In this document: piece by piece, positions 663-59,013 of the stretch
Layout: every line of letters begins with the position of its first letter
Position numbering within the stretch: position 1 is the first letter of the stretch
IMG/VR virus record: IMGVR_UViG_3300047297_000301
Location: 35,691-99,690 of that record
Source of the DNA: a virus
Length of the DNA: 64,000 bases
Direction: 5' to 3' (one strand)
Program-made: the position numbers and the translations under genes
The notes under the pieces: generated by a model
Seen by the model: the letters and a program-made list of their open reading frames with translations, nothing else
Told to the model about the DNA's origin: nothing
Databases searched by the model: none

Positions 663-1039
663 TGAGTGCAAATATAATTGAAAACTTAACAGTATGTGAA
701 ATAAAGGAGATCATTAGTACTCCTACATTTCAAACAAATACTTTTTCACTAACAGATTCTTGTACTTTTTACATAACTAGTAATCCTGGTAGTACTGTAA
801 ATCTAACTAATGTTAGCTTAACTTCAAATGGTGTAATAACAGTTACTTTTATTAGCCCTAATGGAAGTATGGTAATACCTAGTACACTAACTGTTAACGG
901 TACTGGAGTAAGTATTAAATGGCAAGGCGGCACCGCTCCTAGCCAAAGCAGTAATCAAATTCAACTAGTAGTATTTTCTATAATTACTTTGAATAATGCT
1001 GTAGCACATGTAATTGGTGCAAAATCAAACTATAATTAA
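662..1039 (+). CDS. tail-fibre-associated beta-rich protein
   Basis: coupled to previous ORF; 'IKWQGGTAPS' motif typical of phage tail-fibre C-terminal domains. Confidence 0.5.
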   Translation: MSANIIENLTVCEIKEIISTPTFQTNTFSLTDSCTFYITSNPGSTVNLTNVSLTSNGVITVTFISPNGSMVIPSTLTVNGTGVSIKWQGGTAPSQSSNQIQLVVFSIITLNNAVAHVIGAKSNYN

Positions 1040-4156: not shown

Positions 4157-4416
4157 AATTGTTAATATTATCATTAGTTTTGTTACTTAGTGCCTGCACA
4201 ACTGTTCCAGTGGTCGCAAAGTTTCCACAAGCACCAGGTGCACTAGTACAAGAGCCTTGCCCTAACTTGCAAAAACTGCAAGACGAAGCCAAATTATCAG
4301 ATGTTGCAAAAATTGTAACGGTTAATTATACCGAATACTATATGTGCGCTGTGAAATTAGAAGCCTGGCAGCGTTGGTATCGTGAACAAAAAACCATTTA
4401 TGAAAGCGTGAAGTAA
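4153..4416 (+). CDS. Rz1-like outer-membrane lipoprotein spanin
   Basis: MKLLILSLVLLLSAC lipobox from ATG 4153; Pro/Cys-containing. Confidence 0.7.
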   Translation: MKLLILSLVLLLSACTTVPVVAKFPQAPGALVQEPCPNLQKLQDEAKLSDVAKIVTVNYTEYYMCAVKLEAWQRWYREQKTIYESVK

Positions 4417-5030
4417 TGGAATTAACACTTGCTCAACTAAAACAAATTGTTGATAAAAATCCACATATAGAGTACTGGCATCGTGCATTAGTACAACTAT
4501 TACCAGAATACGAAATTAACACTCCACAACGCATGGCAGCTTTTTTAGCGCAATGCGCACACGAGTCAGGCGGGTTTCGTGCAATCAAAGAAAACTTAAA
4601 CTATCGTGCAGTTACGCTCAGGAAGATTTTTGGCAAATACTTTCCCACTGATGAAATGGCTCAACAATATGCAAACAAACCAGAAAAAATTGCTAACTTA
4701 GTTTATGCTAATAGGATGGGTAATGGCGGACCTGAAACAGGCGATGGCTATCGTTATTCGGGTCGTGGACTGATTCAGCTAACTGGCAAAGACAATTACT
4801 TTTGGTTTGCCGCTTCAATAAACTTAACAGCTGAAGCTGCTAGTGAATATATGGAAACCTTTGAAGGTGCAGCACAATCGGCGTGCTGGTTCTGGGAAAC
4901 AAACAACTTAAATCAGTGGGCAGATAAAGACGATATCTTAACACTAACTAAACGTATCAATGGCGGTACTATTGGCCTAGAAGATCGTATAAAACATTAT
5001 GAACATGCCAAGCATGTACTAGGAGCCTAA
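4416..5030 (+). CDS. endolysin, glycoside hydrolase family 19
   Basis: AAFLAQCAHESGGF, YSGRGLIQLTGKDNY and TKRINGG motifs. Confidence 0.9.
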   Translation: MELTLAQLKQIVDKNPHIEYWHRALVQLLPEYEINTPQRMAAFLAQCAHESGGFRAIKENLNYRAVTLRKIFGKYFPTDEMAQQYANKPEKIANLVYANRMGNGGPETGDGYRYSGRGLIQLTGKDNYFWFAASINLTAEAASEYMETFEGAAQSACWFWETNNLNQWADKDDILTLTKRINGGTIGLEDRIKHYEHAKHVLGA

Positions 5031-7088: not shown

Positions 7089-7775
7089 ATGGCAAGTGGT
7101 AAAAGAGCAAGACGCGACAATGTAATTCAATTGGAACGTAACCCAGTAGAGTATGGATTTACAGATGTAAAACCTTTAAACTTTATACAAGCAGAATATC
7201 TAAGAGCAATTCAATCTAATCAAATAGTATTTGGTGTAGGAAGTGCTGGAACAGGTAAGACGTATGTAGCAGCAACATATGCTGCGGGAGAACTCTTTCA
7301 TAGACGTATTCAGAAGATAGTTCTGACTAGACCCAACGTAGAAACAGGTCGTGGGCTAGGATTTTTACCAGGTACACTAGAGGAGAAATACGCTCCCTAT
7401 CTAGAACCTTTTGATAATGTGTTTGCTCGTAGCCTTGGCAAAGGTTTTTATGAGTATGCACTAAAAGCAAAAACAATTGAGCCTAAACCACTGGGTTTTA
7501 TGCGGGGTGCAACTTTTGACAATTGCATCGTTCTCTTAGATGAAGCACAAAATGCTACAAAAGAAGAGATGAAAATGCTGTTATCACGTATTGGTAAAAA
7601 TTGTAAAATGATTATCTCAGGAGATGTAGATCAATCTGATATTCCTGATTCAGGACTATCAGACGCAATTCATCGTTTAGACTGTATTCCAGATATTGAA
7701 GTTGTCAGATTCATGGATGATGATATTGTACGATCTAAAATGTGTAAACAAATTATATTAGCTTATAGAGATTAA
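7089..7775 (+). CDS. phoH: PhoH-like ATPase
   Basis: GSAGTGKT, LGFLPGTLEEK, FMRGATF, DEAQN and SGDVDQSD motifs. Confidence 0.95.
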   Translation: MASGKRARRDNVIQLERNPVEYGFTDVKPLNFIQAEYLRAIQSNQIVFGVGSAGTGKTYVAATYAAGELFHRRIQKIVLTRPNVETGRGLGFLPGTLEEKYAPYLEPFDNVFARSLGKGFYEYALKAKTIEPKPLGFMRGATFDNCIVLLDEAQNATKEEMKMLLSRIGKNCKMIISGDVDQSDIPDSGLSDAIHRLDCIPDIEVVRFMDDDIVRSKMCKQIILAYRD

Positions 7776-7778
7776 ATT

Positions 7779-8417
7779 ATGGCAACAACTTATAAGCCTA
7801 CATCAGGCATGGCAAGCGCAGCCAAACGCGCACTAAAATGGCGAGCGGATGGTAAGCCGGGAGGTACACTGGTAGGATTAGCACGGGCAAATCAACTAAA
7901 AGATCGTGATCCTCTTACAGCTTCAACTGTGCTCAGAATGTTCTCCTTTTTTAGCCGACACGAAGTAGACAAACGTGCTACTGGATTTAACAGTGGTGAA
8001 GAAGGTTTTCCAAGCAAAGGTCGAGTAGCCTGGGACTTGTGGGGCGGAGATGGTGGATACTCTTGGAGTACTGCTAAACGCAATCAAATTATGCGTGCAC
8101 GAGAAGGCAAAGCACTTCACCTAGTAAAACTAAGTGAAAAAGGTATTGTACCTAAAATGGCACGTATGGTAGCTGCTCAGGTACTTGAAAACTACGCAAA
8201 TGAGTATATCAGCGAAGAGCTGGAAGCATTTGGTCAGTTTATGTATCACGCAGAACTCTTACGAAATGATCATTTAGACGTTTACCTAGTAGACTTACAC
8301 ATGGTAGACCAACCTTATCGTGATATGCTTGTTAACGTATTTGGTAATTTACACAGTATGCATGACGAAGATGAGACTGTTGATGACGAAGATTCAGACG
8401 AAGATACTCCCACTTAA
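7779..8417 (+). CDS. conserved phage hypothetical protein
   Basis: GGTLVGLARANQL..RMFSFFSRH..AWDLWGGD domain seen in phage head-related proteins; acidic tail. Confidence 0.55.
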   Translation: MATTYKPTSGMASAAKRALKWRADGKPGGTLVGLARANQLKDRDPLTASTVLRMFSFFSRHEVDKRATGFNSGEEGFPSKGRVAWDLWGGDGGYSWSTAKRNQIMRAREGKALHLVKLSEKGIVPKMARMVAAQVLENYANEYISEELEAFGQFMYHAELLRNDHLDVYLVDLHMVDQPYRDMLVNVFGNLHSMHDEDETVDDEDSDEDTPT

Positions 8418-8986: not shown

Positions 8987-9390
8987 TATACAACATTCCA
9001 GTTAGTGCCGCTAAATATTAGTGTAACTGCACCATCTGTTGCGGCTAAAACGGTATAGCTTGCTGCATTTTCAACAGTTTCTGCTCCGTTTGGAGTAATT
9101 GTAAAATCACTGGTTTGACCAGCTTCTGATTTTACTACTACTACACGACCTTCTGTGCCTGCTGTTAATAATATACTAATTGCAGCACCTGTGCCAACTA
9201 CTCCAAGATAGTAGTTAGGTGTTGCGCCAGCGCTATCAAGAGTATAAGGACTTGCTGCATTGTTTACTAATTTAGTGTTAACTGTGCCGTTGCCAACAAC
9301 AGAAATAACGCCGTTGGTTACGTTTACACCGCTTCCAACTTTAACTACACCATAGTTGGTGGTTGAACTTAAGGGGCTATTAAATGCCAT
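8986..9390 (-). CDS. beta-sandwich structural-like protein
   Basis: shares N-terminal motif with 9403-9954 and C-terminal domain with 9951-10445. Confidence 0.55.
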   Translation of the reverse strand: MAFNSPLSSTTNYGVVKVGSGVNVTNGVISVVGNGTVNTKLVNNAASPYTLDSAGATPNYYLGVVGTGAAISILLTAGTEGRVVVVKSEAGQTSDFTITPNGAETVENAASYTVLAATDGAVTLIFSGTNWNVV

Positions 9391-9402
9391 GATTTTTCCT
9401 TT

Positions 9403-9954
9403 TTAACTAATTCTAGTCATTGTAACTTTTAAACTACTGCCTGTGGGTCGCGTAGGCGTAACTCCAGCAGGTAGTGCACTGAGATTTACTGTTGTGTCTG
9501 CACTAGACCAACAAAACTGTAGATCGCTGTTAGCAGCCATTGGCAGAGTAAAGTTGCCGCTGGTAAATATTATTGAAAGTGTGTTTATTAACTCTAAGTC
9601 TTGTCGTGAGCCAGGTACGTCAACACCATTATATCGCAACCAAATACTCATTGAGCTAGTACCTCCACTGGTTTTTGCCATTGTGGTAGTAAATAGCACT
9701 GTGTACACACCAGCATTGGTTACTCGCAAAATGTCACTACCTATTAGTGTAACACCATTGTTAGGCCCTGCAGTGCTAAATGTACCTATGTTAACTTGAT
9801 TTGCAACTGGATTGGTTTGTGTTCCGTTGCTGTAGAATCCGTAATTTAACAGACCACTTCCTGCACTAACTACTCCATCTGTAACACTTAAGCCACCTCC
9901 AACTTTCATTACTCCATAGTCTGCGGTAGAGGCTAGGGGTTGATTATAACTCAT
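9403..9954 (-). CDS. C1q/BclA-C-terminal-like beta-sandwich protein
   Basis: VTNAGVYTV.F...W.R.NG.DVPGS pattern; start MSYNQP at 9954. Confidence 0.55.
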   Translation of the reverse strand: MSYNQPLASTADYGVMKVGGGLSVTDGVVSAGSGLLNYGFYSNGTQTNPVANQVNIGTFSTAGPNNGVTLIGSDILRVTNAGVYTVLFTTTMAKTSGGTSSMSIWLRYNGVDVPGSRQDLELINTLSIIFTSGNFTLPMAANSDLQFCWSSADTTVNLSALPAGVTPTRPTGSSLKVTMTRIS

Positions 9955-10445
9955 ACTACATTCCATTCTATGCCGTTATAGATTAGGCTAATTGAGCCCC
10001 AGTCTGTGTTTAGTAGGTAGTTTGGTTGTGAGTCAATTGTTGACCCAGTAGTTACCACAGTAATCGGATTCGTGTTAGCGTCTCCAACAGCATCCTTGAT
10101 AACATAAACTTTGCCCACAGTACCCGCAGGTAAAGTAATCGTAACTGAGCCATCATAAATAACACCTAAAAAATATTCTGTTGTTGTTGCCGCATAAGCA
10201 GTTTCATCTATTAATGTAACAGGTACGTCCGCTAGGCTACCTGGCTCACCTTGTGGTCCTTGTGGACCAGGTGGACCTGGTGGACCAGGTGGACCTGGTG
10301 GACCTATAACATTACTGTTTATAACTAGGTCAAGATCGTCGAATTTAGGAGGACAAAAAGGTACTATAGGAGCAGGTAATATTGGTGGTATAAATCCAAC
10401 CATAGGCCAACCAAAAGGCATACTCTGCTTTTGTCGTTGATCCAT
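9951..10445 (-). CDS. collagen-like (GPP)n protein
   Basis: GPPGPPGPPGPPGPQGPQGEPG followed by beta domain. Confidence 0.75.
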   Translation of the reverse strand: MDQRQKQSMPFGWPMVGFIPPILPAPIVPFCPPKFDDLDLVINSNVIGPPGPPGPPGPPGPQGPQGEPGSLADVPVTLIDETAYAATTTEYFLGVIYDGSVTITLPAGTVGKVYVIKDAVGDANTNPITVVTTGSTIDSQPNYLLNTDWGSISLIYNGIEWNVV

Positions 10446-32618: not shown

Positions 32619-32688
32619 AGTATGCGTTTCTTTCGTAAATTAAGTATATATTATACCCGTTTTGCAGTTTAGGGTCAAATGTAAAATT

Positions 32689-48917: not shown

Positions 48918-49257
48918 GTATACCCTGCCGCAATATGCAGCACTCAAATCCCCAACTCAAGAGGTACAGGCAGCAACGCCAAACCTACCACCTACAAGCC
49001 TCCGTCAAGCACAAACCAACTATCTCTTAGATAAACTGCAGGAGGAAGCAGCTGAGGTAATTCAAGCGGTTTCTAAAATCCGCAGGTTTGGTGAGAACTC
49101 CAGTCATCCTGACAGGACTACCTCCAACAAACAGGAGCTGGTTACCGAATTGGAAGATTTTCTTGCAATTCTCGCAGCCTTAGAATACTCAAAGTACCTA
49201 GACCTTAAACCGCAGCAATCAAATATCTTGGCCAAGACACAACAGCTCTTACGCTAA
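48904..49257 (+). CDS. MazG-like NTP pyrophosphohydrolase-fold protein
   Basis: LQEEAAEVIQAVSKI.RFG..ELEDF. Confidence 0.7.
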   Translation: MEIPKYTLPQYAALKSPTQEVQAATPNLPPTSLRQAQTNYLLDKLQEEAAEVIQAVSKIRRFGENSSHPDRTTSNKQELVTELEDFLAILAALEYSKYLDLKPQQSNILAKTQQLLR

Positions 49258-49532
49258 ATTGCCCTTACAACTAGACCAGACCCTGATCTCCACTGTGTGC
49301 TACAAAGCAAAATCTAGTTTCCCACAACTGTGCAGCAAGATATTGAAAAAGCTTGCACTATTGTGCTGGAAGTAGTATAATTAACACATACCACAAACTG
49401 TTATAATTATTATAACAAAAACACTAAAAGAAAAAAATTTTACACTCCAGAACATGAGCATTGATAAAAATACCACTTGCTTTTTAAAATTTTTGTGTTA
49501 TAATATATGTATAGATTCTAGAGAAGAGATAA

Positions 49533-49641
49533 ATCTGGTGTGCTTGCACTGACCCAACCCCATGAGGAGTTATAGTGAAACCTTACACTATTACGACGAA
49601 TTGATGCGGTTTAGGGTCATAGTTCAAGTGCACACATGGAT
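49533..49641 (+). ncRNA. candidate rod-shaped RNA / structured leader
   Basis: long interrupted hairpin with central bubble downstream of TTGCTT-N16-TATAAT promoter. Confidence 0.45.
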
Positions 49642-49725
49642 AACACTGTTCAATGAGGACTACTATTTTTTGTTGCATGTGCAACATTTCTTTTTTTAAA
49701 CACTTATAAAGTGAGGTTTTTACCT

Positions 49726-50739
49726 ATGCGATATCAAACAAGAACAATTACCCGGGAACTGAAATCTGTGCCATTTGACAAGGCTTTCCGACTCTGTGAG
49801 GATGCAGCGGCCTTGGCGGTTGCAACCCAACAGCAAATCCTAGACGACCAATTTAATGCTGAAGTAGCCAGACTAGAGCAGGAGTATGCAGACTCCCACG
49901 AAGCCCCTAGTGAAACAAGCTTTGCAGATCAAGTTGCTGACCCTAAATTGGACAGACCAAAAGTAGCTAAGCAGGCACGACAAAGGGCTCTTGTAGAAGA
50001 GTTTATTCCACAGTATGGATTGGATACTACCTTGCAATTATATACCATGCCTGAAATTATTCGCTGGATTGCCAGAAACTACTCAGAACAGTGGCTATCG
50101 GAGATTTTAACAGCTGAGGGTCAGATAGATGGTAAGAAAGCAGCTAATGCTATTTTTGACTTCTCTCAAGACTGGGATAAAGGACTCTACTTCTTTTTAA
50201 TGCTAGATGCTAGAAGCAGCTACATTAAAACACAGTACAAAGGCGATGGTAGGAATTACTGTAGTTTAGTTCCCTTAATTCCTTATGCTTTTAAATTACT
50301 ACACTCTATTCCATACTCGAAGTGGGATAAGTCTACTCTTCACATGGTAGTTAATGAAAGTTTATGCAACTCTATGTTATGTGAAGTACCTGAAACAACA
50401 CGAGAAGAGTTACTTGAAATTCGAGAGTTGGGACTAGTATTTAAGACTGGTGAAAAAGCAGGCACAACAAGAAACGCAGCTTCAACATACCGACTAACTG
50501 GTGTTAATTCTACAAAAATCGGTGGATTACCTGAATTAGCACAGACTATGCTCACACAAATCTGGTGTGCTCACCCAACCAATAGAACCAAGTACATGGT
50601 TCTAGACCCACATAACTGGGACGCAATCCCATCCCCTTTAGTTGCAGAGCAGTTGTTTGCACCTATTGTAAAAGAAAAGTCAAGTCGTAAAAAGCCTGGT
50701 TCAGATGATAATAGCTACGACTTACCCTGGAATTTATAA
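49726..50739 (+). CDS. hypothetical protein
   Basis: 337-aa ORF, RBS GAGG, acidic DLPW tail. Confidence 0.65.
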   Translation: MRYQTRTITRELKSVPFDKAFRLCEDAAALAVATQQQILDDQFNAEVARLEQEYADSHEAPSETSFADQVADPKLDRPKVAKQARQRALVEEFIPQYGLDTTLQLYTMPEIIRWIARNYSEQWLSEILTAEGQIDGKKAANAIFDFSQDWDKGLYFFLMLDARSSYIKTQYKGDGRNYCSLVPLIPYAFKLLHSIPYSKWDKSTLHMVVNESLCNSMLCEVPETTREELLEIRELGLVFKTGEKAGTTRNAASTYRLTGVNSTKIGGLPELAQTMLTQIWCAHPTNRTKYMVLDPHNWDAIPSPLVAEQLFAPIVKEKSSRKKPGSDDNSYDLPWNL

Positions 50740-50740
50740 C

Positions 50741-51103
50741 ATGAAGTATACTAAAGAAATCACAGATAAATTGATCACAGACTATAGACTAGGTGTACCT
50801 GTAGCCACAATTGCTACAGAATTAGATGTACCCGAACGTAGTGTTATTGCTAAATTGAGCTCTCTGGGCGTCTACCTCAAAAAATCGTATGTCAACAAGC
50901 GTGGTGAGGTCCCAGTAAAAAAATCCGAGCACATCGAACGCATTGCACAATTGCTGGAGGTAGATGAGGAGACCTTGGAGTCCTTGGAGAAGGTCAACAA
51001 GCAGGTGCTTAAATTAATCGAGCACCGTTTGCAACACTCTGACCCTAAACCGCCCAAATCAGCACAAGCTCGCACAGAATCAGACTTATTTGCACTTAAT
51101 TGA
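50741..51103 (+). CDS. T5 A2-like DNA-binding protein (paralog 1)
   Basis: YT.E.T..L..DY..G..V..IA..L....RSVIAKLS..GVY.KK..KK..I...L.....ESLEK. Confidence 0.65.
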   Translation: MKYTKEITDKLITDYRLGVPVATIATELDVPERSVIAKLSSLGVYLKKSYVNKRGEVPVKKSEHIERIAQLLEVDEETLESLEKVNKQVLKLIEHRLQHSDPKPPKSAQARTESDLFALN

Positions 51104-51135
51104 CCCAGAACTGCGCTAAATCGGCCTAATCGAAG

Positions 51136-51171
51136 AAAAGCCCACTTAAATTGCTTTAAGTGGGCTTTTTT
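51136..51171 (+). terminator. intrinsic terminator
   Basis: AAAAGCCCACTTAAA-TTGC-TTTAAGTGGGCTTTTTT. Confidence 0.85.
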
Positions 51172-51244
51172 GCGTGTGTTTCTCAGGGTGCTGAAACTGT
51201 GTGCATTTGCTGCAGCTTAGGGTCAGAGAGCTGAGAATTCACAC

Positions 51245-51345
51245 TTGACAAGTTTTTGCACTCTAGAGTATAATGGCGCCAGCAGCAACCGCAAAAAATT
51301 TTAAGCAAAACAAAAGCCCCTACAACTTTCGCTGTAGGGGCTTTT
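51245..51345 (+). promoter_or_regulatory. orphan sigma70 promoter followed ~35 nt later by a terminator
   Basis: TTGACA-N18-TATAAT-GGCGCC then GCCCCTACA..TGTAGGGGC-TTTT. Confidence 0.7.
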
Positions 51346-51689
51346 GAAATATCCTTCGAAGTATAGGGAACACCGATATTTTTTAACTCTAGCAGGACTA
51401 TTAAGGTAATCAACCAGCCTGACCCTAAACTGTGGCAGTTGCCACATGCAGCCTTGGGTGATGAATCCCGCGCGAAGCTGTCTAGGTGAGTGTTGCACGT
51501 TTCAGTTTTCAACTGGGAACTCCCTGTCGAAAATATCCGTGGCTAACATAGTTTTGTGTGGTTGCGCACAACTGTTTTTTCAATTATTTTTACGACCCGC
51601 CACAGTTTAGGGTCAGTGATTTCGTGCAGTTGTCTCTGACTGGATATATTTTATGCACCCTCCGCAGTTTAGGGTCATTTCGCACCATT

Positions 51690-52185
51690 ATTTAAGCACC
51701 CGTAGCTAGGTCTTGTGCGCCTTTACAGAATGGTTTGCGCAACACCACTCAGTCGCTAGCGGGATTAGCCCGCATTACAGGATAAGTGTCCTGCTCTTTG
51801 GTTTAGATGATAGCTGTATTTATTTAAGGAGTTCTTTCTCCCCGAGTTCCTATAATATATGTTACTCTGAACCATTTCCTAGTTTAAGTAACGTACTCAT
51901 AGAGGAGTCGGCATGGGATAGAGGCGGGACATGCTGCCTAGTACTACTACTTTCCTAACACCAGCAAGTGGTACACGCTAGGGGTTTCGTCCTGACCCTA
52001 AGGTACAGCAGGTTGGGAGTTGGGAACTCTCCGTGACCGTGCTGTGAAGTCTTGGGTTTCGCCGAAATTACATCGGCTCATCAGAGGATTATAAAGGGCT
52101 GCAACTTAAGACCTTCAGTCGCAATTAAAAACTTATCCAGTTCTAGGAGAGCTGGTCTTGGTTTACCCATATTCTGCAATTTATA
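51690..52185 (-). ncRNA. large structured non-coding transcript containing a hammerhead ribozyme
   Basis: promoter at 52190-52218, no credible ORF, more than 10 hairpins. Confidence 0.65.
51990..52088 (-). ncRNA. hammerhead ribozyme (type I topology)
   Basis: UCCU-CUGAUGA-GCCGA/UCGGC-GAAA-CCC...GGG-UC^AGGA; all core nucleotides and three stems. Confidence 0.8.
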
Positions 52186-52189
52186 AGTA

Positions 52190-52218
52190 ATTATACACGA
52201 TTTGCACAACTACTTCAA
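52190..52218 (-). promoter_or_regulatory. sigma70 promoter driving ncRNA
   Basis: minus TTGAAG-N17-TATAAT. Confidence 0.7.
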
Positions 52219-52360
52219 GTAAGAAATTAGACACTCGTTGCAATCAGACTACTCACAAAACAGACTATTGATAAGTTGAAGATTTGAGGTGAGATTCATT
52301 TGCAGACGGACACCAACTTGCATTGGTATTCATTAAGCCCTTCCCGACTGTCTAATATAT

Positions 52361-52389
52361 ATTATACTTGAAAAACAGTTGAAGATCAA
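52361..52389 (-). promoter_or_regulatory. sigma70 promoter
   Basis: minus TTGATC-N17-TATAAT. Confidence 0.65.
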
Positions 52390-52420
52390 GTCAATATTTT
52401 TTGACCCTCAACTGCTGCAA

Positions 52421-52729
52421 TCAACGCAGGTTTTGGAGGATTGCTTCCAGTACTTCGTGGTTGGCTTTCTCTAGTGAGTCGAAAGTCTCTGGAGCAACAC
52501 CAACTCGGTTGGCGATTGCGTCAACAAGGTCAGCCTTCTTGACACGAGCAACACCAGAGGCTTTGTTCTTGGCTTGGTAAACTCCTTCTCTGGAGAGTTT
52601 TGCTACCACTGAGCGAGTGGTCTTGCCAAACATTGTTGCCAATGTTTCGACAGTAGCGCCAGCTTTGTAGTTGGCAACGAGCTGAGCGGTTTGCTCAGGG
52701 GTATAGTTTACGGGTTGGTTAGTCATCAT
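52421..52729 (-). CDS. T5 A2-like DNA-binding protein (paralog 2)
   Basis: NYTPEQT..KTTRSVVAKLSREGVY..KKAD..DSLEKAN. Confidence 0.7.
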   Translation of the reverse strand: MMTNQPVNYTPEQTAQLVANYKAGATVETLATMFGKTTRSVVAKLSREGVYQAKNKASGVARVKKADLVDAIANRVGVAPETFDSLEKANHEVLEAILQNLR

Positions 52730-52776
52730 ATGTCCTTTCAAATGGTTTCTGCGCTGTTTAAGATATAATTATACTA

Positions 52777-52911
52777 TTAAAAGGGAACATCGTCAAATTC
52801 AAAAAATTCGGGGTGTGTGTTGGTATCTACAAAAACTTCCAATAGTTCCGTGCCAGCAAATTCGCGGAAGTAGTCTTCCTGAATTTGTGCGTAAAATTCA
52901 TGTTCTGTCAT
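52777..52911 (-). CDS. 44-aa acidic peptide ending FDDVPF
   Basis: RBS AAAGGA, own promoter TTGTCC-N17-TATAAT; below track cutoff. Confidence 0.6.
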   Translation of the reverse strand: MTEHEFYAQIQEDYFREFAGTELLEVFVDTNTHPEFFEFDDVPF

Positions 52912-53009
52912 CTCAGAGTCCTTTCTGTCTAATATGTATTATTATACAAAATTTCAAAAAATTGGACAAGTGCGAAGTTTTTGATGTGAGCTGGCCGCCG
53001 CTGAAAATA

Positions 53010-53240
53010 CACTTGACAACACAAGGTTTACCACTGTATAATCGGCGCACACGTACCACCGCGGAAAATTCCTCAAGTTTTTGCACTGGCGCAGAATTTT
53101 TCTGCGCCCAAGTAGTACGAAAGTAGTAGTCGCTTCAAGCAACCGTTGTTTTTATGCCACACCAATTTTGGCGCCGCGAAGTGAGTGCTCACTTCGCTTT
53201 GAGATAATAAAAAGCCGATTATAAATAATCGGCTTATAAT
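53010..53240. repeat. modular palindrome cassette 1
   Basis: orphan promoter and motifs F, A, B, C (see findings). Confidence 0.75.
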
Positions 53241-53250
53241 CATTATCTGA

Positions 53251-53571
53251 TTATATTGGCTTTGAATTAGCCAATGCTTCGAAAATCACTTTTAAAGCAT
53301 TTTTATTTGCTTTAGTTAATGATTCAATATCATTTTCGGGTAATCTCAAAATCGCCCCAATAGCGTCTGCGTGAATATCTTTTTTAACCGCAGATTCTCC
53401 GTTTTTGGTTTTATATTCTTTTTTAATATAAACCTTTTCTCGAGATAATTTAGCAACAATACTCCGAACAGTTTTTCCGAGATTATCTGCGATAATCTCG
53501 ACAGATAATCCGCTCTGATAATCAGAGATAATCTGAGCAGTTTGCTCAGGGGTGTAATTAATCGTTTTCAT
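53251..53571 (-). CDS. T5 A2-like DNA-binding protein (paralog 3)
   Basis: NYTPEQT..GKTVRSIVAKLSREKVY. Confidence 0.7.
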   Translation of the reverse strand: MKTINYTPEQTAQIISDYQSGLSVEIIADNLGKTVRSIVAKLSREKVYIKKEYKTKNGESAVKKDIHADAIGAILRLPENDIESLTKANKNALKVIFEALANSKPI

Positions 53572-53582
53572 TTATTTTCTCC

Positions 53583-53816
53583 TTAAAATGAATTATATAA
53601 ACCAAGGATATTAGCCAAAAAGAATGTGCCATTAAGGGTAACTAATGATTTATCTTTTCGATAATATCCAACCATTAACCAAGATAATGATCCTATAATA
53701 AAGAAACAATATCCTAGAAAAAATAATTTACTGGCAACAATAAATGCGCCAATAATGCTTGATATAGTCCCAATCCATGAAACTATATTTAGTAATTGAA
53801 TAATATTAAAAATCAT
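53583..53816 (-). CDS. small multi-pass membrane protein
   Basis: three hydrophobic helices. Confidence 0.6.
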   Translation of the reverse strand: MIFNIIQLLNIVSWIGTISSIIGAFIVASKLFFLGYCFFIIGSLSWLMVGYYRKDKSLVTLNGTFFLANILGLYNSF

Positions 53817-54190
53817 GGTTTTACTTTCATATAATGATATGGATTATCTTCTAAACCATAGTTAATCATTATCTCACGCCATTTATTACCATGACCGCAT
53901 TTTGCTTCTGATAATCCAAACAGATTATAATCGGCTTGGTGGATTATCTCATGGGGCAAGATAATATTAGTCATAGTTTTTGCATAATCGGGAGAATATG
54001 TAAAAAACAAATAACCTAATTCAACTAGATTATCTTCCTGATGGCATCTGCCAGCAGTCCGATATAATCTAGCATTAACTTTGATAATCGGAGGATTATA
54101 TTTAGTTAATCGGGGATATAATTCGCACAGATTATCCCAAATAATCAAGGTCTGATTATTTAGTTGTTTTGTAAGCTGTTTTCTGTCCAT
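53813..54190 (-). CDS. SprT-like zinc metalloprotease
   Basis: N.RL..TAG, HEIIH, GHG..W..IM motifs. Confidence 0.8.
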   Translation of the reverse strand: MDRKQLTKQLNNQTLIIWDNLCELYPRLTKYNPPIIKVNARLYRTAGRCHQEDNLVELGYLFFTYSPDYAKTMTNIILPHEIIHQADYNLFGLSEAKCGHGNKWREIMINYGLEDNPYHYMKVKP

Positions 54191-54217
54191 AGCCAAATTT
54201 TACACGATTTTTAGGGC

Positions 54218-54329
54218 AAAAACATAGGGGTTTACCCTTGTGGTTTTTTTACAACGGTCGCTTTAAGCGACCGTTGTTTTTTAACAACATACTTTGGTTT
54301 TCAATTTGACTTGAAAACCAAAGTATTCA
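54218..54329. repeat. modular palindrome cassette 2
   Basis: motifs E, B, A (27-bp palindrome), paired D. Confidence 0.75.
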
Positions 54330-54572
54330 TTTTGATTTTATTTTATAATAAATAATAACTGATAAAAATAATAAATTAGCAGAATAATTAAATAATAAAG
54401 GTAAATCCATTTTAGGGAATACATATATTATTGTGAATATCTCGCCAATAAACCACATTGAAATAAATCCCCAAGTTAATCCCTCGGAGGATTTTGTTTT
54501 ATATGATTCTATTGCTTGCGGTAATCCGCAAAATGCTAATAATATTGAACCAATCCAACCTATATTTTCCAT
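54327..54572 (-). CDS. PQ-loop/SemiSWEET-like 3-TM protein
   Basis: IGWIG..LLA...LPQA...YKTKSSEGL..F..W..G and P...NY..N. Confidence 0.75.
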   Translation of the reverse strand: MENIGWIGSILLAFCGLPQAIESYKTKSSEGLTWGFISMWFIGEIFTIIYVFPKMDLPLLFNYSANLLFLSVIIYYKIKSK

Positions 54573-54577
54573 TTTGA

Positions 54578-55273
54578 TTATGCCTTAAAATTATCTCTTA
54601 CTTGAAACTTATTCCAATCATAAGGAATAATATTATCTTGCCAATTACGTTTTTTGATTATGTGCGTGAGAATAGGTAATTCAAAATCTCGGGCATCTTC
54701 TAATGCGGTATGAGGCTCGATAATCAAATTATTATTAATATAACCGCAAACCATTTCAGCATTAGTTTTAAATGTCATATTGCCATGCTTAGTAACATTA
54801 TTAAAACCGTGATTATCTAAACAGAATTGTTTATATTTTTTGGTTTTGCAGATATTACCAACTGAGGCTTGCCATAAGCAGAATTTATTATTAAACCCTG
54901 ATAAATCAATTCCAGTATTAGCGCATTTATTAATATCAAAAGCGAGATTATATGCAGTAAGTGTAGGATTATATTTGCCGATTGCCTGATTAATCCATTT
55001 ATTAATAGCAGAAACTGACGCAATCATTCTAATACCATTTTCTAACATGGCAATATAACCCATTTTGCGCTTAGTTAATCCCTGATAACCCCAAATATCA
55101 TTTGCATTTTTATCATGGAATAATTCCATAGTATTATAATGCCCATTAACTAATACCGCACATTGATTATATATATTACCCTCACGATCACAGATAATCA
55201 TGGCAAAATCTGCCACAGTATCGCCCATTGTAGTTTCGGTGTCTAGAATACAAAAGTATTGCTTTTTTGCCAT
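54578..55273 (-). CDS. DEDDh 3'-5' exonuclease
   Basis: LDTETT, AYNLAFD and HTALEDA motifs. Confidence 0.8.
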   Translation of the reverse strand: MAKKQYFCILDTETTMGDTVADFAMIICDREGNIYNQCAVLVNGHYNTMELFHDKNANDIWGYQGLTKRKMGYIAMLENGIRMIASVSAINKWINQAIGKYNPTLTAYNLAFDINKCANTGIDLSGFNNKFCLWQASVGNICKTKKYKQFCLDNHGFNNVTKHGNMTFKTNAEMVCGYINNNLIIEPHTALEDARDFELPILTHIIKKRNWQDNIIPYDWNKFQVRDNFKA

Positions 55274-55324
55274 ATAGCCCTTTATTGGTAGAATCCGATT
55301 ATAGCAGAAAAAATTAATAGCCCA

Positions 55325-55495
55325 TGTTGTATTTTAATCACACACAAAAAATAAGTTATTAAAAAAACTTGACACGCCCCAATTTTATGTGATAAAATTG
55401 GCGCCGACTGTGGTTTAAAAACAACAGTCGCTTTAAGCGACCAGTTAAAATTGAAAACCTGAGTATTCAATTTTTGCTGGAAACAAAAGTATTCA
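55325..55495. repeat. modular palindrome cassette 3
   Basis: B, orphan promoter, B, A, paired D. Confidence 0.75.
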
Positions 55496-55645
55496 TTTGT
55501 CCATAATGAATCTTTTATATTCTTGCATATTATTGTGATAATCCCAAGTACCCAGCATTAATAATGGCAAGATAATAGTTACTAAAATCTTATCAGGTCT
55601 AGCAAATATAAAATGCCAGATTATCTGCGAAAATGTTTTAATCAT
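55493..55645 (-). CDS. small membrane protein (50 aa)
   Basis: RBS GGAG; TAATG coupling. Confidence 0.5.
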   Translation of the reverse strand: MIKTFSQIIWHFIFARPDKILVTIILPLLMLGTWDYHNNMQEYKRFIMDK

Positions 55646-55797
55646 TAATGTGTTCTCCGAGTTAATATATCTAAAATCTGTCTTAATGGTATTTGCATTA
55701 TATCTACAATATCATAAAGATTATAGCCTTCGGCTAAAAAATCTTTAATTAATGTTTCGGCATAATCAATATTAATGCCCTTGTTTACTTGGTACAT
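55645..55797 (-). CDS. small HTH-like protein (50 aa)
   Basis: MYQVNKGINIDYAETLIKDFLAEGYNLYDIVDIMQIPLRQILDILTRRTH. Confidence 0.45.
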   Translation of the reverse strand: MYQVNKGINIDYAETLIKDFLAEGYNLYDIVDIMQIPLRQILDILTRRTH

Positions 55798-56248
55798 ATA
55801 CACCCCTTATATTAAATCTGTCACAAACCGCTTTTAGATAATCTGTATTATCTTCGTAAAATGTAAATTCAGCATCTTTAAATGTAATCAAATTAAAGAA
55901 TTTAGCCAAACCATTAATTTTTAATAAACCACCAGAGATATTAGAATTCTCAGGTCTTGAAATAATATAATCAGGTTCACCCAATATCTGATTAATAAAT
56001 GTATAATCAGGGGTATTAAGAACACGGGCAGTAGCAATAATGACATAACACGATTCATCTTTTAAATCCATTTTATATTGTTCGGCTAATGGTAACAGAG
56101 AATCATTTAATGCTAAATCCTGATTTTCTCTCCAGTAATTTAAATCTATTCTCTCGCCATTTTCATCTACGATTGTGCGGTATCTGTGCAAACTGCAAAC
56201 AATAGTTCCATCCATATCATAAATTGAAACCTTTTTAATTTTAGCCAT
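55772..56248 (-). CDS. HAD-superfamily phosphatase
   Basis: IYDMDGT motif I, TAR, K and YEDN. Confidence 0.8.
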   Translation of the reverse strand: MAKIKKVSIYDMDGTIVCSLHRYRTIVDENGERIDLNYWRENQDLALNDSLLPLAEQYKMDLKDESCYVIIATARVLNTPDYTFINQILGEPDYIISRPENSNISGGLLKINGLAKFFNLITFKDAEFTFYEDNTDYLKAVCDRFNIRGVYVPSKQGH

Positions 56249-56305
56249 TCTGTAATCCTTTTCTGTATTCTGTGATTATACACAAAAAACCGCCCAAAAA
56301 CCCTG

Positions 56306-56498
56306 CGTGCAAAAATACAACATAGGGGTTTATCCCTATTGACACGGGCTCAATTATACTAGTATAATTGGCGCAAACTGTTGCTAAAAAGCAACAGTCG
56401 CTTGAAGCGACCACATTTAGCGAAGTGAGTACTTACTTCGCTGCGGCGCAGACTTGAATACCTGAGTATTCAATTTTTTCTGCAAACCTTGGTATTCA
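56306..56498. repeat. modular palindrome cassette 4
   Basis: B, E, orphan promoter, B, A, C, paired D. Confidence 0.8.
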
Positions 56499-56846
56499 AA
56501 ACGAAACCAAATCAATTTGATAATTTTTGTGAAAATATTCTCGCCATTGCGTGAAACCCGATTTTTTATCGTGCGCTAAGTCTTGATTATTTTCCATTTG
56601 CCATGCGTGAACATATTCATGTGCTAGTGTGGAAAATAATTGTCTATCTGATTTTATTTCACTAGTGGAAAGCCTGATTTTGTGGTTTATCTTTTTTTCT
56701 GAAAATTTTGTTCCTTCATACATTCCCATGCACAAGTCACCATCAAAACGAATAACTTTGTTTTTTGCAAAGTTAACCCTATATTTTAGTTTAAAGGTAT
56801 CTTGCAAAATTAATTGAAACAAGCGGGTTTTATCTGATCTGATCAT
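56496..56846 (-). CDS. HExxH zinc metallopeptidase-like protein
   Basis: TLAHEYVHAWQ..H....F..W. Confidence 0.75.
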   Translation of the reverse strand: MIRSDKTRLFQLILQDTFKLKYRVNFAKNKVIRFDGDLCMGMYEGTKFSEKKINHKIRLSTSEIKSDRQLFSTLAHEYVHAWQMENNQDLAHDKKSGFTQWREYFHKNYQIDLVSF

Positions 56847-56926
56847 TTTGTGAACCAGTTTAATAGTACAATTTTAATTGCAACAAACGCAACAAAAGCA
56901 GATAGGTATAAAATAAATTCAAGCAT
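56843..56926 (-). CDS. 27-aa hydrophobic peptide
   Basis: MLEFILYLSAFVAFVAIKIVLLNWFTK, ATGA-coupled. Confidence 0.4.
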   Translation of the reverse strand: MLEFILYLSAFVAFVAIKIVLLNWFTK

Positions 56927-57032
56927 GGTAAAACAGACTAATGGTTTAAAAACAGACTAATGGTTTTTTGGTTTTCAAAATGAAATTATAACACAATTTC
57001 ATTTTGAAAAACAAGGGGCAAAGCCCCATTGT

Positions 57033-57359
57033 TTACAAGGTTTTTTCAGCCTTGATAAAATCAGCAATTTTCATTAAAGCAATTTTGTTTGCTTTAGTGA
57101 GTGATTCTGTATCAGCTTCAGTCAAGCCTAATGCGTCACCGATAAAATCAGCGTGAACGTCCTTTTTAATAGGTGTTTCGCCTGATTTCGTTTTGTATGC
57201 TTTAGCAACATAAACCTTTTCACGGCTCAATTTTGCAACAACAGAACGAACAGTTTTGCCGAATGTTTCAGCAATGGTTTCAACGCTAGTGCCAGCTTGA
57301 TAGTCGGCAACCATTCGAGCAGTTTGCTCGGGCGTGTAGTTTACAGTTTTGGTAGTCAT
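57033..57359 (-). CDS. T5 A2-like DNA-binding protein (paralog 4)
   Basis: NYTPEQT..GKTVRSVVAKLSREKVY; RBS AGGAG. Confidence 0.7.
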   Translation of the reverse strand: MTTKTVNYTPEQTARMVADYQAGTSVETIAETFGKTVRSVVAKLSREKVYVAKAYKTKSGETPIKKDVHADFIGDALGLTEADTESLTKANKIALMKIADFIKAEKTL

Positions 57360-57392
57360 CTTATTTTCTCCTAGTAAGAATGAATTTTAACA

Positions 57393-57506
57393 TCATGGCT
57401 TCATTAATGCAAGCCATATCCACAATGGCAAAAAGGCTATAGCAACAAATAAAATAGCGCATAAAATATCTTGAATTAATTTGTTTGCATATTTAGTCAT
57501 TGTCAT
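57393..57506 (-). CDS. small membrane peptide
   Basis: single TM; RBS AAGGG. Confidence 0.45.
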   Translation of the reverse strand: MTMTKYANKLIQDILCAILFVAIAFLPLWIWLALMKP

Positions 57507-57557
57507 TTTCCCTTTCATCATGTGTTTATTATAGCAGAAAAAACCAAAAAAGTTCAA

Positions 57558-57909
57558 GTGTGCTAAAATACAACATAGGGGTTTATCCCTATTGACAAGC
57601 CGTGGGCAGTGTGGTATAATTTTGGCGCCCCAAAACTGAGTACCTTGGTTTCTAAAAAATCCTGCAAACAAAGGTATTCATTTTTTGTAACAAAAACTGT
57701 GGCAAAAAAACAACAGTCGCTTAAAGCGACTGGTTGCGGAAACGCCCGCACGGAAAGAATTCTAACTACCACACTGGCGCACGAAATTCGTGCGCCCAAA
57801 TCGCAGAAGTGAGCGCTCACTTCGCCCAATGTTAGTGGGTACTCACTTCGCAAAGCGGATAACCCTACTGGGATCAGGGTCTTTCCCTGATTATAAGGGT
57901 TTACCCTTA
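57558..57909. repeat. modular palindrome cassette 5
   Basis: B, E, orphan promoter, paired D, B, A, F, C, C, E, E. Confidence 0.8.
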
Positions 57910-58065
57910 ATCAATATCTATCCTGATTATCTTATTATTTTTGACAATAAAATACATATTCAAGTTATTAATCATAACCCAAATGCAATCATTACCCTTT
58001 GCCATACTATATAATGCAGAAGGGTATTTTCTCATCATATATTCACGAACGATTTGATAATCCAT
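57907..58065 (-). CDS. hypothetical protein
   Basis: RBS GGAG, start MDYQIV. Confidence 0.5.
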   Translation of the reverse strand: MDYQIVREYMMRKYPSALYSMAKGNDCIWVMINNLNMYFIVKNNKIIRIDID

Positions 58066-58066
58066 T

Positions 58067-58234
58067 TTATTCTCCATTATAATATTGTGCAATAGCAGAA
58101 CGATACTCAGATATAGTATTAAAGCCAATATCATGCTTATCGCAAAATGCTTTAAATTCTATTACCTGATCGTTATTATATTTTGCATATAATACGTCAC
58201 CTAATACAAAGTTATTTAATTCGTCTTTGGTCAT
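58067..58234 (-). CDS. hypothetical protein
   Basis: RBS GGAG, start MTKDEL. Confidence 0.5.
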   Translation of the reverse strand: MTKDELNNFVLGDVLYAKYNNDQVIEFKAFCDKHDIGFNTISEYRSAIAQYYNGE

Positions 58235-58281
58235 TTTATTATCTCCGATTATATTATCTATTAAGGGAAAACCCTTTCGGG

Positions 58282-58683
58282 TTAACCCTGCCAACCTTGC
58301 TTGCTCAATAATTGCAGAGTGCTATGTGTTGCGCCCATGCGACACAGGGTAAACCATTGATCTAGGCTCATGTCACCTTTCAGCGTATTCCACTTAGTGC
58401 AAGCAAGGTGAATATTATCTAGGGTATACCCTAATGAAGGGTCGATTCTATCAATAGAAGCTACCATTGGGTTTTTATCACCATACCAATCACCGCCTCG
58501 CACCAATTCCATTTGTTGCCCAGTTAACCCACACAAACCATTTTGACCCTTGAACATACCCTCTAAAAATGTAGGGGTAATTCTAAGATCAAAACCCCGA
58601 CCATCTTTTTTTGATCTAGATTTCGCCCATTTAATAGAATCAGAAAAGAACTTTTCCATTGGGGTTTTAATAGATTTTGCCAT
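58282..58683 (-). CDS. HNH-like endonuclease
   Basis: Q.G.C.LTG, SIDRIDPS.GY..DNI...C...N..K. Confidence 0.75.
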   Translation of the reverse strand: MAKSIKTPMEKFFSDSIKWAKSRSKKDGRGFDLRITPTFLEGMFKGQNGLCGLTGQQMELVRGGDWYGDKNPMVASIDRIDPSLGYTLDNIHLACTKWNTLKGDMSLDQWFTLCRMGATHSTLQLLSKQGWQG

Positions 58684-58817
58684 TTTGAGTACCTTTGTTT
58701 GCAGTTTGGGGGGGTTGCCCTTTGCTTCCCTCTTGAATGTATTTTACACGTGTTTTTTGTGAGGTCAACCCCTTTATGCAAATTTTGCATAACTATTTAC
58801 TCTATGCTATCCCGACT

Positions 58818-58834
58818 AGCAAGAATCGTGCCAG
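58818..58834 (-). promoter_or_regulatory. sigma54 -24/-12 promoter consensus
   Basis: minus strand CTGGCACG-ATTC-TTGCT. Confidence 0.55.
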
Positions 58835-59013
58835 CTTAAATGAATACTTTTGTTTGCAGACTGGGGCGGTTATCGGACACGTATACCCCCTAGGGTATAT
58901 GGGCCCCCCGACACGGCCTATTTAAGGAAAATTTGCAAACACCCTAAGGTGCCAAAATCCAGACTTGCCTAAATCTCCCTAAACTGGTATAATCACTACA
59001 AAAGGACATAATT

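Follow-up and report, generated by a model that had tools for sequence, protein, structure and literature searches.

To our knowledge, few large structured RNAs are known from phages and none of them has an established function. tRNA-like domains are present in transcripts other than tRNAs, as exemplified by the tRNA-like domain of tmRNA and the tRNA-like structures of viruses. Hammerhead ribozymes occur in phage and prophage transcripts, where they flank genes (Perreault et al. 2011, PMC3088659). Paired DnaA boxes are a conserved hallmark of the T5 injection-stop signal (iss), a non-coding region of the phage T5 genome (Davison 2020, doi 10.1101/866236). Here, we analyzed a non-coding minus-strand locus of an uncultured T5-like phage from freshwater, located in a 64,000-nt window, i.e., the whole stretch of DNA under study, which corresponds to bases 35691–99690 of the 99,690-bp IMG/VR virus record IMGVR_UViG_3300047297_000301. 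It is likely that this locus encodes a large phage non-coding RNA (ncRNA) that is stable and self-processed, a statement about identity and processing and not about function. The best explanation of the data is that the locus is neither a coding leader nor primarily a DNA signal. The view of an earlier note that a promoter-driven, self-cleaved, and structured ncRNA is encoded here was supported. The RNA is expressed at a very high level in lake metatranscriptomes, with a step in depth at the bin boundary by the predicted cut.

Transcript, abundance, and hammerhead ribozyme

The transcript is delimited and divided by the following elements:

52361–52389, minus strand: second promoter-like site, TTGATC-N17-TATAAT, lying upstream, which would feed the same transcript (scan; also in the homologous locus L030)
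52190–52218, minus strand: sigma-70-type promoter, TTGAAG-N17-TATAAT, with a predicted start near 52183 (consensus scan)
51990–52088, minus strand: type I hammerhead, predicted cut between 51994 and 51993 (sequence)
51305–51993, minus strand: 3′ cleavage product of ~690 nt, the abundant RNA, with a presumed 5′-OH end (summed contig depth, four runs)
51311–51346, minus strand: intrinsic terminator of 16 pairs by scan count, with 14-nt perfectly complementary arms followed by a U-tract (scan)

Assembled contigs of four lake metatranscriptome runs (X15, X16, X18, and X19) from three studies were placed on positions 49001–59000. The summed depths, given in this order of the runs, were 42045, 96633, 305, and 6223 in the bin 51339–51672; 28078, 83482, 507, and 13865 in the bin 51673–52006; and 582, 615, 47, and 286 in the next bin upstream, 52007–52340. 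At position 51704, they reached 74689, 240794, 1828, and 60855. A 50–150-fold step thus separated the bins on either side of ~52006, the bin boundary that adjoins the predicted cut. The depth was 40 or less at 49.0–51.3 kb and mostly below 150 at 53–59 kb, with a few bins up to 429; since the flanks are low, DNA carry-over is ruled out. The high-depth block coincided with the stretch between the predicted cut and the terminator, and contigs bridging the cut site were found only at depths of 184 and 35. It is strongly indicated that the RNA 3′ of the GUC site accumulates in lakes at 100–1000 times the level of the neighboring phage RNA.

The ribozyme upstream of this block is composed of the following parts, all read from the sequence:

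UCCU 52088–85 with AGGA 51993–90, minus strand: stem I
52084–78, minus strand: CUGAUGA
52077–61, minus strand: stem II of 5 bp
52060–57, minus strand: GAAA
52056–51995, minus strand: long stem III
51996–94, minus strand: GUC, directly after stem III

Both core strands, the A15.1–U16.1 pair, and a cleavable triplet are therefore in place, and with a covarying stem II they make this the genuine hammerhead within a promoter-driven transcript that had been proposed. A pattern search in which CUGAUGA and GAAA were fixed recruited the same architecture from 40 viral contigs. Across the family, stem II takes at least eight different sequences, always complementary, and several different stem III inserts occur. 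Covariation was assessed here and for the remaining structure in a MAFFT alignment of 14 loci that was not fitted to any structure. Stem II showed two compensatory pairs, in eight and six sequences, stem III was 86% paired with a covarying extension, and stem I of 3–4 bp was mostly invariant. Triplet variants such as AGUC and GGUC were seen in loci found independently of the cut-site motif.

Two further ribozyme candidates were rejected. The second CAGUUUAGGGUCAGG copy at 51432–51418, tried in the type I and type III registers, has no CUGANGA core and no matching GAAA–stem III strand. The "two tandem hammerheads" of contig 3300043436_004120 are accounted for by a 127-bp assembly overlap and a 90%-identical strain variant.

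The lengths given earlier, ~500 nt for the whole RNA with an end at 51690 and ~300 nt for the self-cleaved product, had to be revised. Past 51690, conservation runs on through two 31-nt repeat units, a conserved domain, a second copy of the cut-site motif, and the terminator, whose stem sequence is altered yet still complementary in the homologs. Because conservation extends to 51346–51311, the primary transcript should measure ~880 nt and its 3′ product ~690 nt. The scan recovered the promoter at 52218–52190, and 13 homologous loci retain both of its hexamers although their spacer sequences differ; since promoter-like sites are not enriched in the region (six found vs. 5.3 expected), it is this conservation and not the scan count that makes the promoter credible. 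Behind it there is, as expected, no credible open reading frame (ORF), every small ORF within 52209–51301 (32–109 aa in the window) being broken by stops or frameshifts in the homologs.

Two stretches close to the promoters were noted in the homologs. Between both promoters, 52240–52351 (minus strand) is 94–97% identical in several of them and thus exceeds the RNA in conservation. A hairpin ACCAA-UGCAAG-UUGGU lies in this stretch and shows compensatory changes in L030, and a 22-codon ORF is frameshifted in L007 and L035. The stretch may represent a leader element or a small RNA of its own. Directly after the promoter, an extra structured segment of ~90 nt is present in the majority of the close homologs, namely L016 (~840–930, minus strand), L032, L040, L037, L013, L023, L045, L008, L007, and L002 and absent from the window, L030, and L062; it had no Rfam match at E up to 1.

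Conserved structure and the tRNA-Glu-like core

The combined structure was paired in 87% of the alignment cells vs. 34–43% when the partners were slid, and it contained 29 pairs with compensatory changes, a number that none of 500 shuffles reached. Most of the stems proposed beforehand were supported in this way. From the leader to the 3′ end, the elements are:

52137–52155, minus strand: leader hairpin CCAG/CUGG, invariant in the 14 loci and so without covariation signal
52100–52123, minus strand: leader hairpin UGCGACU/AGUUGCA with the conserved loop UGAAGGUCUUAA, 100% paired
51954–51982, minus strand: 5′ domain hairpin CCUAGC/GUUAGG with inner ACCA/UGGU, invariant in the 14 loci, present in the minimum-energy fold
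51895–51934, minus strand: two hairpins, GCAUG/CAUGC and ACUC/GAGU, with CUCUAU-type loops, 92% and 100% paired
51844–51867, minus strand: GAG/CUC helix, 51867–65 with 51846–44, 100% paired, three compensatory pairs
51828–51841, minus strand: hairpin P0, GGAG-AAAGAA-CUCC, with a conserved loop, four of four pairs compensatory in 33 loci
51755–51814, minus strand: tRNA-Glu-like cloverleaf, the most conserved core (model R1, covariation), in which P1 GCUA/UAGC closes a four-way junction, followed by P2 UCU/AGA, P3 51793–78, UAAUG, and P4 51773–59
51728–51750, minus strand: variable hairpin GAGUGGU/ACCAUUC, replaced by different hairpins in the homologs
51585–51677, minus strand: two tandem 31-nt units, each a hairpin beginning at GACCCUAAAC, then UAAAA (repeat analysis)
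51496–51541, minus strand: 3′ domain CACG-GAUAU-[hairpin]-CUGAAA-CGUG with invariant flanks
51418–51432, minus strand: second CAGUUUAGGGUCAGG copy, an 18-nt perfect complement of 51616–51599, conserved in all subfamilies, with no hammerhead core around it

In the leader, the UGCGACU/AGUUGCA stem showed three compensatory pairs, and L035 carries CCUGC/GCGGG where the window has CCAG/CUGG. The pairs of CCUAGC/GUUAGG and ACCA/UGGU never vary and hence give no covariation signal. One compensatory pair each was found for GCAUG/CAUGC and ACUC/GAGU, and covariation also upheld GGAG/CUCC, CAGGA/UCCUG, and GCGGG/CCCGC. Two of the proposed helices were not confirmed: GUUACU/AGUAAC was paired in 39% of cells and the GAG/CUC helix takes its place, and GAGUGGU/ACCAUUC is the form that a variable hairpin has in the window. 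Nor was the suggested AAGACC/GGUCUU pseudoknot confirmed, of which one pair covaries from G:C to C:G in two sequences, as judged by eye. The GACCCUAAAC units number one to four in all subfamilies, and the inner hairpin of the 3′ domain is, by eye, a different self-complementary stem in each of the window, L016, L021, L028, L034, and L043.

What is new here is that the most conserved core, as judged from alignments and a covariance model, forms a four-way junction whose arms each align with those of a phage tRNA-Glu(UUC). In an unfitted MAFFT alignment of 30 loci, P0 and the four-way junction emerged as the consensus, with compensatory changes in 11 of 19 pairs. The covariance model R1 detected 33 viral loci at 59–112 bits; in their R1 alignment 99% of cells were paired, a figure somewhat inflated because the alignment was fitted to the model, whereas the slid controls were 30–48% paired. 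Compensatory changes affected 12 of the 19 pairs, which was matched in 0 of 500 shuffles. Over 648 kb, R1 had a single further match, at 25 bits (E 0.002), to the tRNA-Glu(UUC) gene of the phage contig L066. In this comparison, the covariation-supported helices P1–P4 align to the four arms of the tRNA: P1 to the inner acceptor stem, P2 to the D arm, P3 to the anticodon arm, and P4 to the T arm, with UAAUG as the variable loop. Local alignments of the cores against phage tRNA-Glu genes scored up to 8.6 standard deviations above shuffles (4.4 for the window core), and when 48 distinct tRNAs were ranked, the top places went mostly to tRNA-Glu genes, although the mean score over all tRNA-Glu genes was not above that of other tRNA types.

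The core as an actual tRNA was rejected. Its acceptor stem has 4 bp and is followed by GA, there is no CCA, the D and T loops are altered, and in place of an anticodon loop the variable P3 arm carries loops that range from 3 to 7 nt and beyond and show no anticodon pattern; P4 is a 5-bp arm with the loop UAUGGAAU. A whole-genome ARAGORN run gave no tRNA call at the core, and no tRNA match was found at 51.7–51.9 kb in Rfam at E up to 10. We read the core as a degenerate tRNA-Glu retained for another purpose.

An invariant 19-mer at 51821–51803, mostly within the cloverleaf, was found in 35 viral contigs, among them phages without detectable protein similarity to the window phage. Cellular or prophage copies were sought and discarded, as the 13 exact 19-mer matches in 185,579 bacterial genomes compare with ~17 expected by chance and all score 24 bits or less with R1. 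The R1 search found no copy of the core in T5.

In 20 of the 33 loci, the RNA core is preceded by a canonical hammerhead core at a distance of 180–290 nt, and several other loci (L004, L028, L056, L051) have variant hammerheads with a large or bulged stem II; none was recognized in L048, L052, L057, L059, L065, and L066. Many hammerhead-bearing relatives are without the core yet possess the 5′ start, the repeat units, the 3′ domain, and the terminator. The RNA family is modular. In another phage lineage, six loci have a tRNA-Glu gene 0.36–1.6 kb upstream on the same strand, inside a tRNA cluster. In L021 (10815–10886, minus strand) and L010, a tRNA gene with an encoded CCA abuts stem I of the hammerhead within a few bases, which places the ribozyme between the tRNA and the large RNA. 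In the window phage, the tRNA cluster is 15 kb away from the RNA gene.

Some observations on single contigs were made along the way. Upstream of the core, L048 (~10200–10400, minus strand) and L052 (~4250–4450, plus strand) carry a T-arm-like GGUGGUUCGAAUCCACC and then an acceptor-like strand, with no ARAGORN call; this may be a broken or split tRNA in the hammerhead's stead. On the core-bearing contig L055, eight tRNAs and a permuted tmRNA in two pieces (7630–8007, plus strand; 137 bits) are encoded; the tmRNA is of the Betaproteobacteria type, which hints at the host group of that lineage. Nine independent related contigs (L009, L016, L017, L020, L023, L030, L032, L034, L041) end 0.36–1.6 kb past the hammerhead on its downstream side, with no such end within 1.6 kb on the other side. 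No end sequence is common to the nine. An assembly break at the edge of a strain-conserved block is probably a better account than physical DNA ends.

Database searches offered no name for the RNA. Rfam searches, run on the window with gathering scores and on 51000–52800 with E up to 10, yielded nothing for the RNA beyond a weak, sub-threshold Hammerhead_3 match, and blastn of 51000–52800 against 50,697 phage records gave no match. No description of the RNA was found in the literature; parts of it could be among the 10,006 unnamed viral RNA candidates that one catalogue lists (PMC10690425).

Repeated motif, genomic setting, and alternative readings

Several points weigh against an ncRNA gene. 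The folding energy is unexceptional (z = −0.85), so that the case for structure rests on covariation. Stem I of the hammerhead has only 3–4 bp, and the Rfam Hammerhead_3 model scores 20.1 bits in a different register vs. a gathering score of 48.5 (22.9 bits in L016), with the ~50-nt insert in stem III as the most likely cause of the missed threshold. The depths come from contigs without true 5′ ends, in 334-nt bins and summed over relatives of at least 90% identity, and the abundant RNA is assigned to the minus strand from the predicted promoter, ribozyme, and terminator. Finally, the GACCCTAAAC motif is also present outside the RNA gene, in both orientations, which would fit a DNA-level reading too.

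The last point concerns TTAGGGTCA, found in 13 exact copies in the window vs. ~0.5 expected for a 9-mer per 64 kb. Eight of the 13 copies lie within 49.6–52.0 kb in both orientations, one forms the hammerhead cut site, and there are inverted pairs ~160 nt apart, a perfect one of 18 nt and an imperfect one of 22 nt. Copies outside the RNA gene are located at window positions 13414, 16615, 20749, 32670, 40577, 43830, 49612, 49938, and 51040 and at genome positions 11641 and 33023; in nine of these 11, TGACCCTA is on the coding strand. The copy at 32670 supplies the −35 element and the spacer of a promoter-like site on the minus strand that ends with TATAAT, and in L052 a copy falls within a promoter spacer. 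Within the RNA, every GACCCUAAAC is matched by a nearby hairpin partner, and the registers vary between homologs, which argues for a role at the RNA level there, whereas the overlap of the outer copies with promoter elements argues for a role at the DNA level.

The latter could mean that the GACCCTAAAC copies are operators. Four paralogous small helix-turn-helix (HTH) proteins are encoded at 50705, 52421, 53251, and 57033, two of which flank the RNA in ~20 relatives, and their resemblance to the HTH repeats of T5 D5 (E 4e-7) is closer than the marginal one to T5 A2 (E 0.016), for which reason a designation of these neighbors as "A2-like" was dropped. Together with the promoter overlaps and the invariance of the motif, which does not covary, this makes candidate operators for the four D5-like proteins conceivable, although rather doubtful on the sequences at hand, as a DNA-level layer compatible with the RNA gene. 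A site in duplex DNA would have no need of the separate hairpin partners of the copies in the RNA, nor of their varying registers, and the coding-strand bias of TGACCCTA, albeit in a small sample, is unlike an orientation-blind DNA site.

The region could also be chiefly DNA, namely the injection stop and the inner boundary of the terminal repeat in a T5-like two-step injection, with inverted GTTTAGGGTCAG repeats and with the RNA being secondary or a component of entry. The large terminase of the window phage is ~49% identical to those of T5-like Vibrio phages, with more than 1000 weaker matches in T5-like Salmonella and Escherichia phages; the runs holding the sequence are labelled freshwater or aquatic metagenomes. 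Plus-strand genes stop at 51103, a bidirectional terminator follows at 51134–51171, and small minus-strand genes span from 58790 to 52421, so that ~1.3 kb without a credible gene separates the two convergent blocks. On the T5 map, the iss at 9140–10149 comes after a rightward small-gene operon and a terminator and faces convergent early genes, and terS and terL are 3–5 kb from the other side of the repeat. A convergent non-coding junction past a block of small genes adjoining the packaging genes is likewise found here and is kept in ~20 relatives. By analogy only, then, the locus would occupy the T5 injection-stop position. Of the equivalence drawn in the earlier note, the setting and the synteny stood. 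DnaA boxes (TTWTNCACA) did not bear it out, with five matches in 64 kb vs. 12 expected by chance and none in 51–53 kb; nor did the lack of the core in T5 or the location of the same RNA within tRNA clusters in another lineage. We therefore consider a mainly DNA-level signal unlikely, in spite of its position and of the eight clustered motif copies with their inverted pairs, as covariation and the extreme abundance point to selection on the RNA. Moreover, the "direct terminal repeat" of the record is only a 105-bp assembly overlap.

There is a slim chance that the RNA is a base-pairing regulator whose GUUUAGGGUC pairs with CUGACCCUAAAC sites in phage mRNAs, or whose own GACCCUAAAC units sponge such a partner. 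The RNA is in great excess and holds the motif in both orientations, and most copies elsewhere are sense-strand GACCCUAA; against this, the targets are few, the copies inside the RNA can pair mutually (the 18-nt perfect complement), and the motif never varies, hence shows no covariation. An mRNA for a small protein, or a leader that regulates a gene downstream, with the hammerhead only trimming the transcript, has precedents in the gene-flanking hammerheads of prophages (Perreault 2011, PMC3088659) and could draw on the 32–109-aa ORFs, but it is very improbable and is already contradicted by the results, as these ORFs are broken in the homologs, the terminator precedes any gene, and the next genes are convergent.

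Other proteins encoded nearby are listed here:

55772–56248, minus strand: 158-aa protein with a PHROG match "polynucleotide kinase" (E 3e-8), kept in most relatives of the small-gene block
53813–54196 and 56496–56846, minus strand: two small SprT-like metalloprotease-domain proteins of the putative early block (Pfam PF10263, E 1e-9 and 1e-6)

The 158-aa protein matched no Pfam family, and its kinase reading derives from the PHROG match alone; a possible 5′-kinase near an RNA with a presumed 5′-OH end is a noteworthy pairing.

Proposed action of the RNA and comparison with known systems

For the ncRNA gene, the following course of events may be proposed. It is strongly indicated that one or both host-type sigma-70 promoters start the ~880-nt transcript, presumably at once on infection by the host polymerase. 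The type I hammerhead, ~100–190 nt into the transcript, would cut co-transcriptionally between 51994 and 51993, and the 3′ piece would be released because only the 3–4 bp of stem I hold it. Shielding from end-dependent decay by the 5′-OH end and the terminator hairpin would explain the abundance. That the part 3′ of the GUC site folds into conserved modules, with the tRNA-Glu-related four-way junction as the most conserved one, is likewise strongly indicated.

Regarding the role, we can only tentatively suggest an abundant decoy or scaffold that binds and occupies some factor of the host or the phage through its tRNA-like module and its repeated hairpins; candidates would be an enzyme of tRNA processing, a defence nuclease directed at tRNAs, or a protein recognizing GACCCUAA. 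It is possible, though still speculative, that a new class of large phage RNA is at hand, freed by a hammerhead, built on a degenerate tRNA-Glu core, and made at very high levels from the first minutes. Such an RNA-only device might mimic a tRNA and thereby titrate a host enzyme of tRNA-directed defence or processing, or it might be a GOLLD/ROOL-like self-assembling particle held by intermolecular pairing of GACCCUAAAC with GUUUAGGGUC. If either the tRNA-mimic decoy or the RNA assembly proved true, an RNA-based strategy would be added to the early host takeover of T5-like phages, and phage hammerheads would gain a concrete job, the making of a stable ncRNA with a 5′-OH end. Clear boundaries, a ribozyme, strong covariation, a core of recognizable tRNA-Glu origin, a wide distribution among freshwater phages, and extreme abundance in environmental RNA make this RNA unusually tractable for biochemistry and structural work.

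Among the described systems, the T5 iss (Wang 2005; Davison 2020, doi 10.1101/866236) resembles the locus in being a non-coding, repeat-rich region of 1–2 kb at a convergent junction past small genes and by the packaging genes. It differs in having paired DnaA boxes, a major nick, and no annotated RNA product, whereas the locus described here is without DnaA boxes, has a different repeat, and gives rise to a highly expressed structured RNA. With the tRNA-like domains of tmRNA and viruses the core shares the cloverleaf topology, a tRNA-like junction spacing, the resemblance to a particular tRNA, and, in some phages, tRNA genes nearby. It departs from them in its 4-bp acceptor, the lack of a CCA end and of an anticodon loop, an altered T loop of 8 nt, and a D loop without GG, and it is missed by ARAGORN and the Rfam tRNA model.

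GOLLD and ROOL (Weinberg 2009/2017; cryo-EM preprint, doi 10.1101/2024.12.08.627333) are similarly large (0.6–0.9 kb), multi-domain, and phage-borne RNAs; they are often encoded next to tRNA genes. Their covariance models gave no match, whether in the window with gathering scores or in 51000–52800 with E up to 10, and the RNA described here is set apart by its 5′ hammerhead and the embedded tRNA-Glu-like cloverleaf. With the type I hammerheads (Rfam clan CL00010), the ribozyme shares the CUGAUGA and GAAA cores, the A15.1–U16.1 pair, the GUC triplet, closed stems II and III, an open stem I, and the phage context; its ~50-nt structured stem III insert, its 3–4-bp stem I, and an Rfam score of 20 bits, below the threshold, are its own. 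Unlike the hammerheads of phages and prophages that separate genes, this one is predicted to release an ncRNA.

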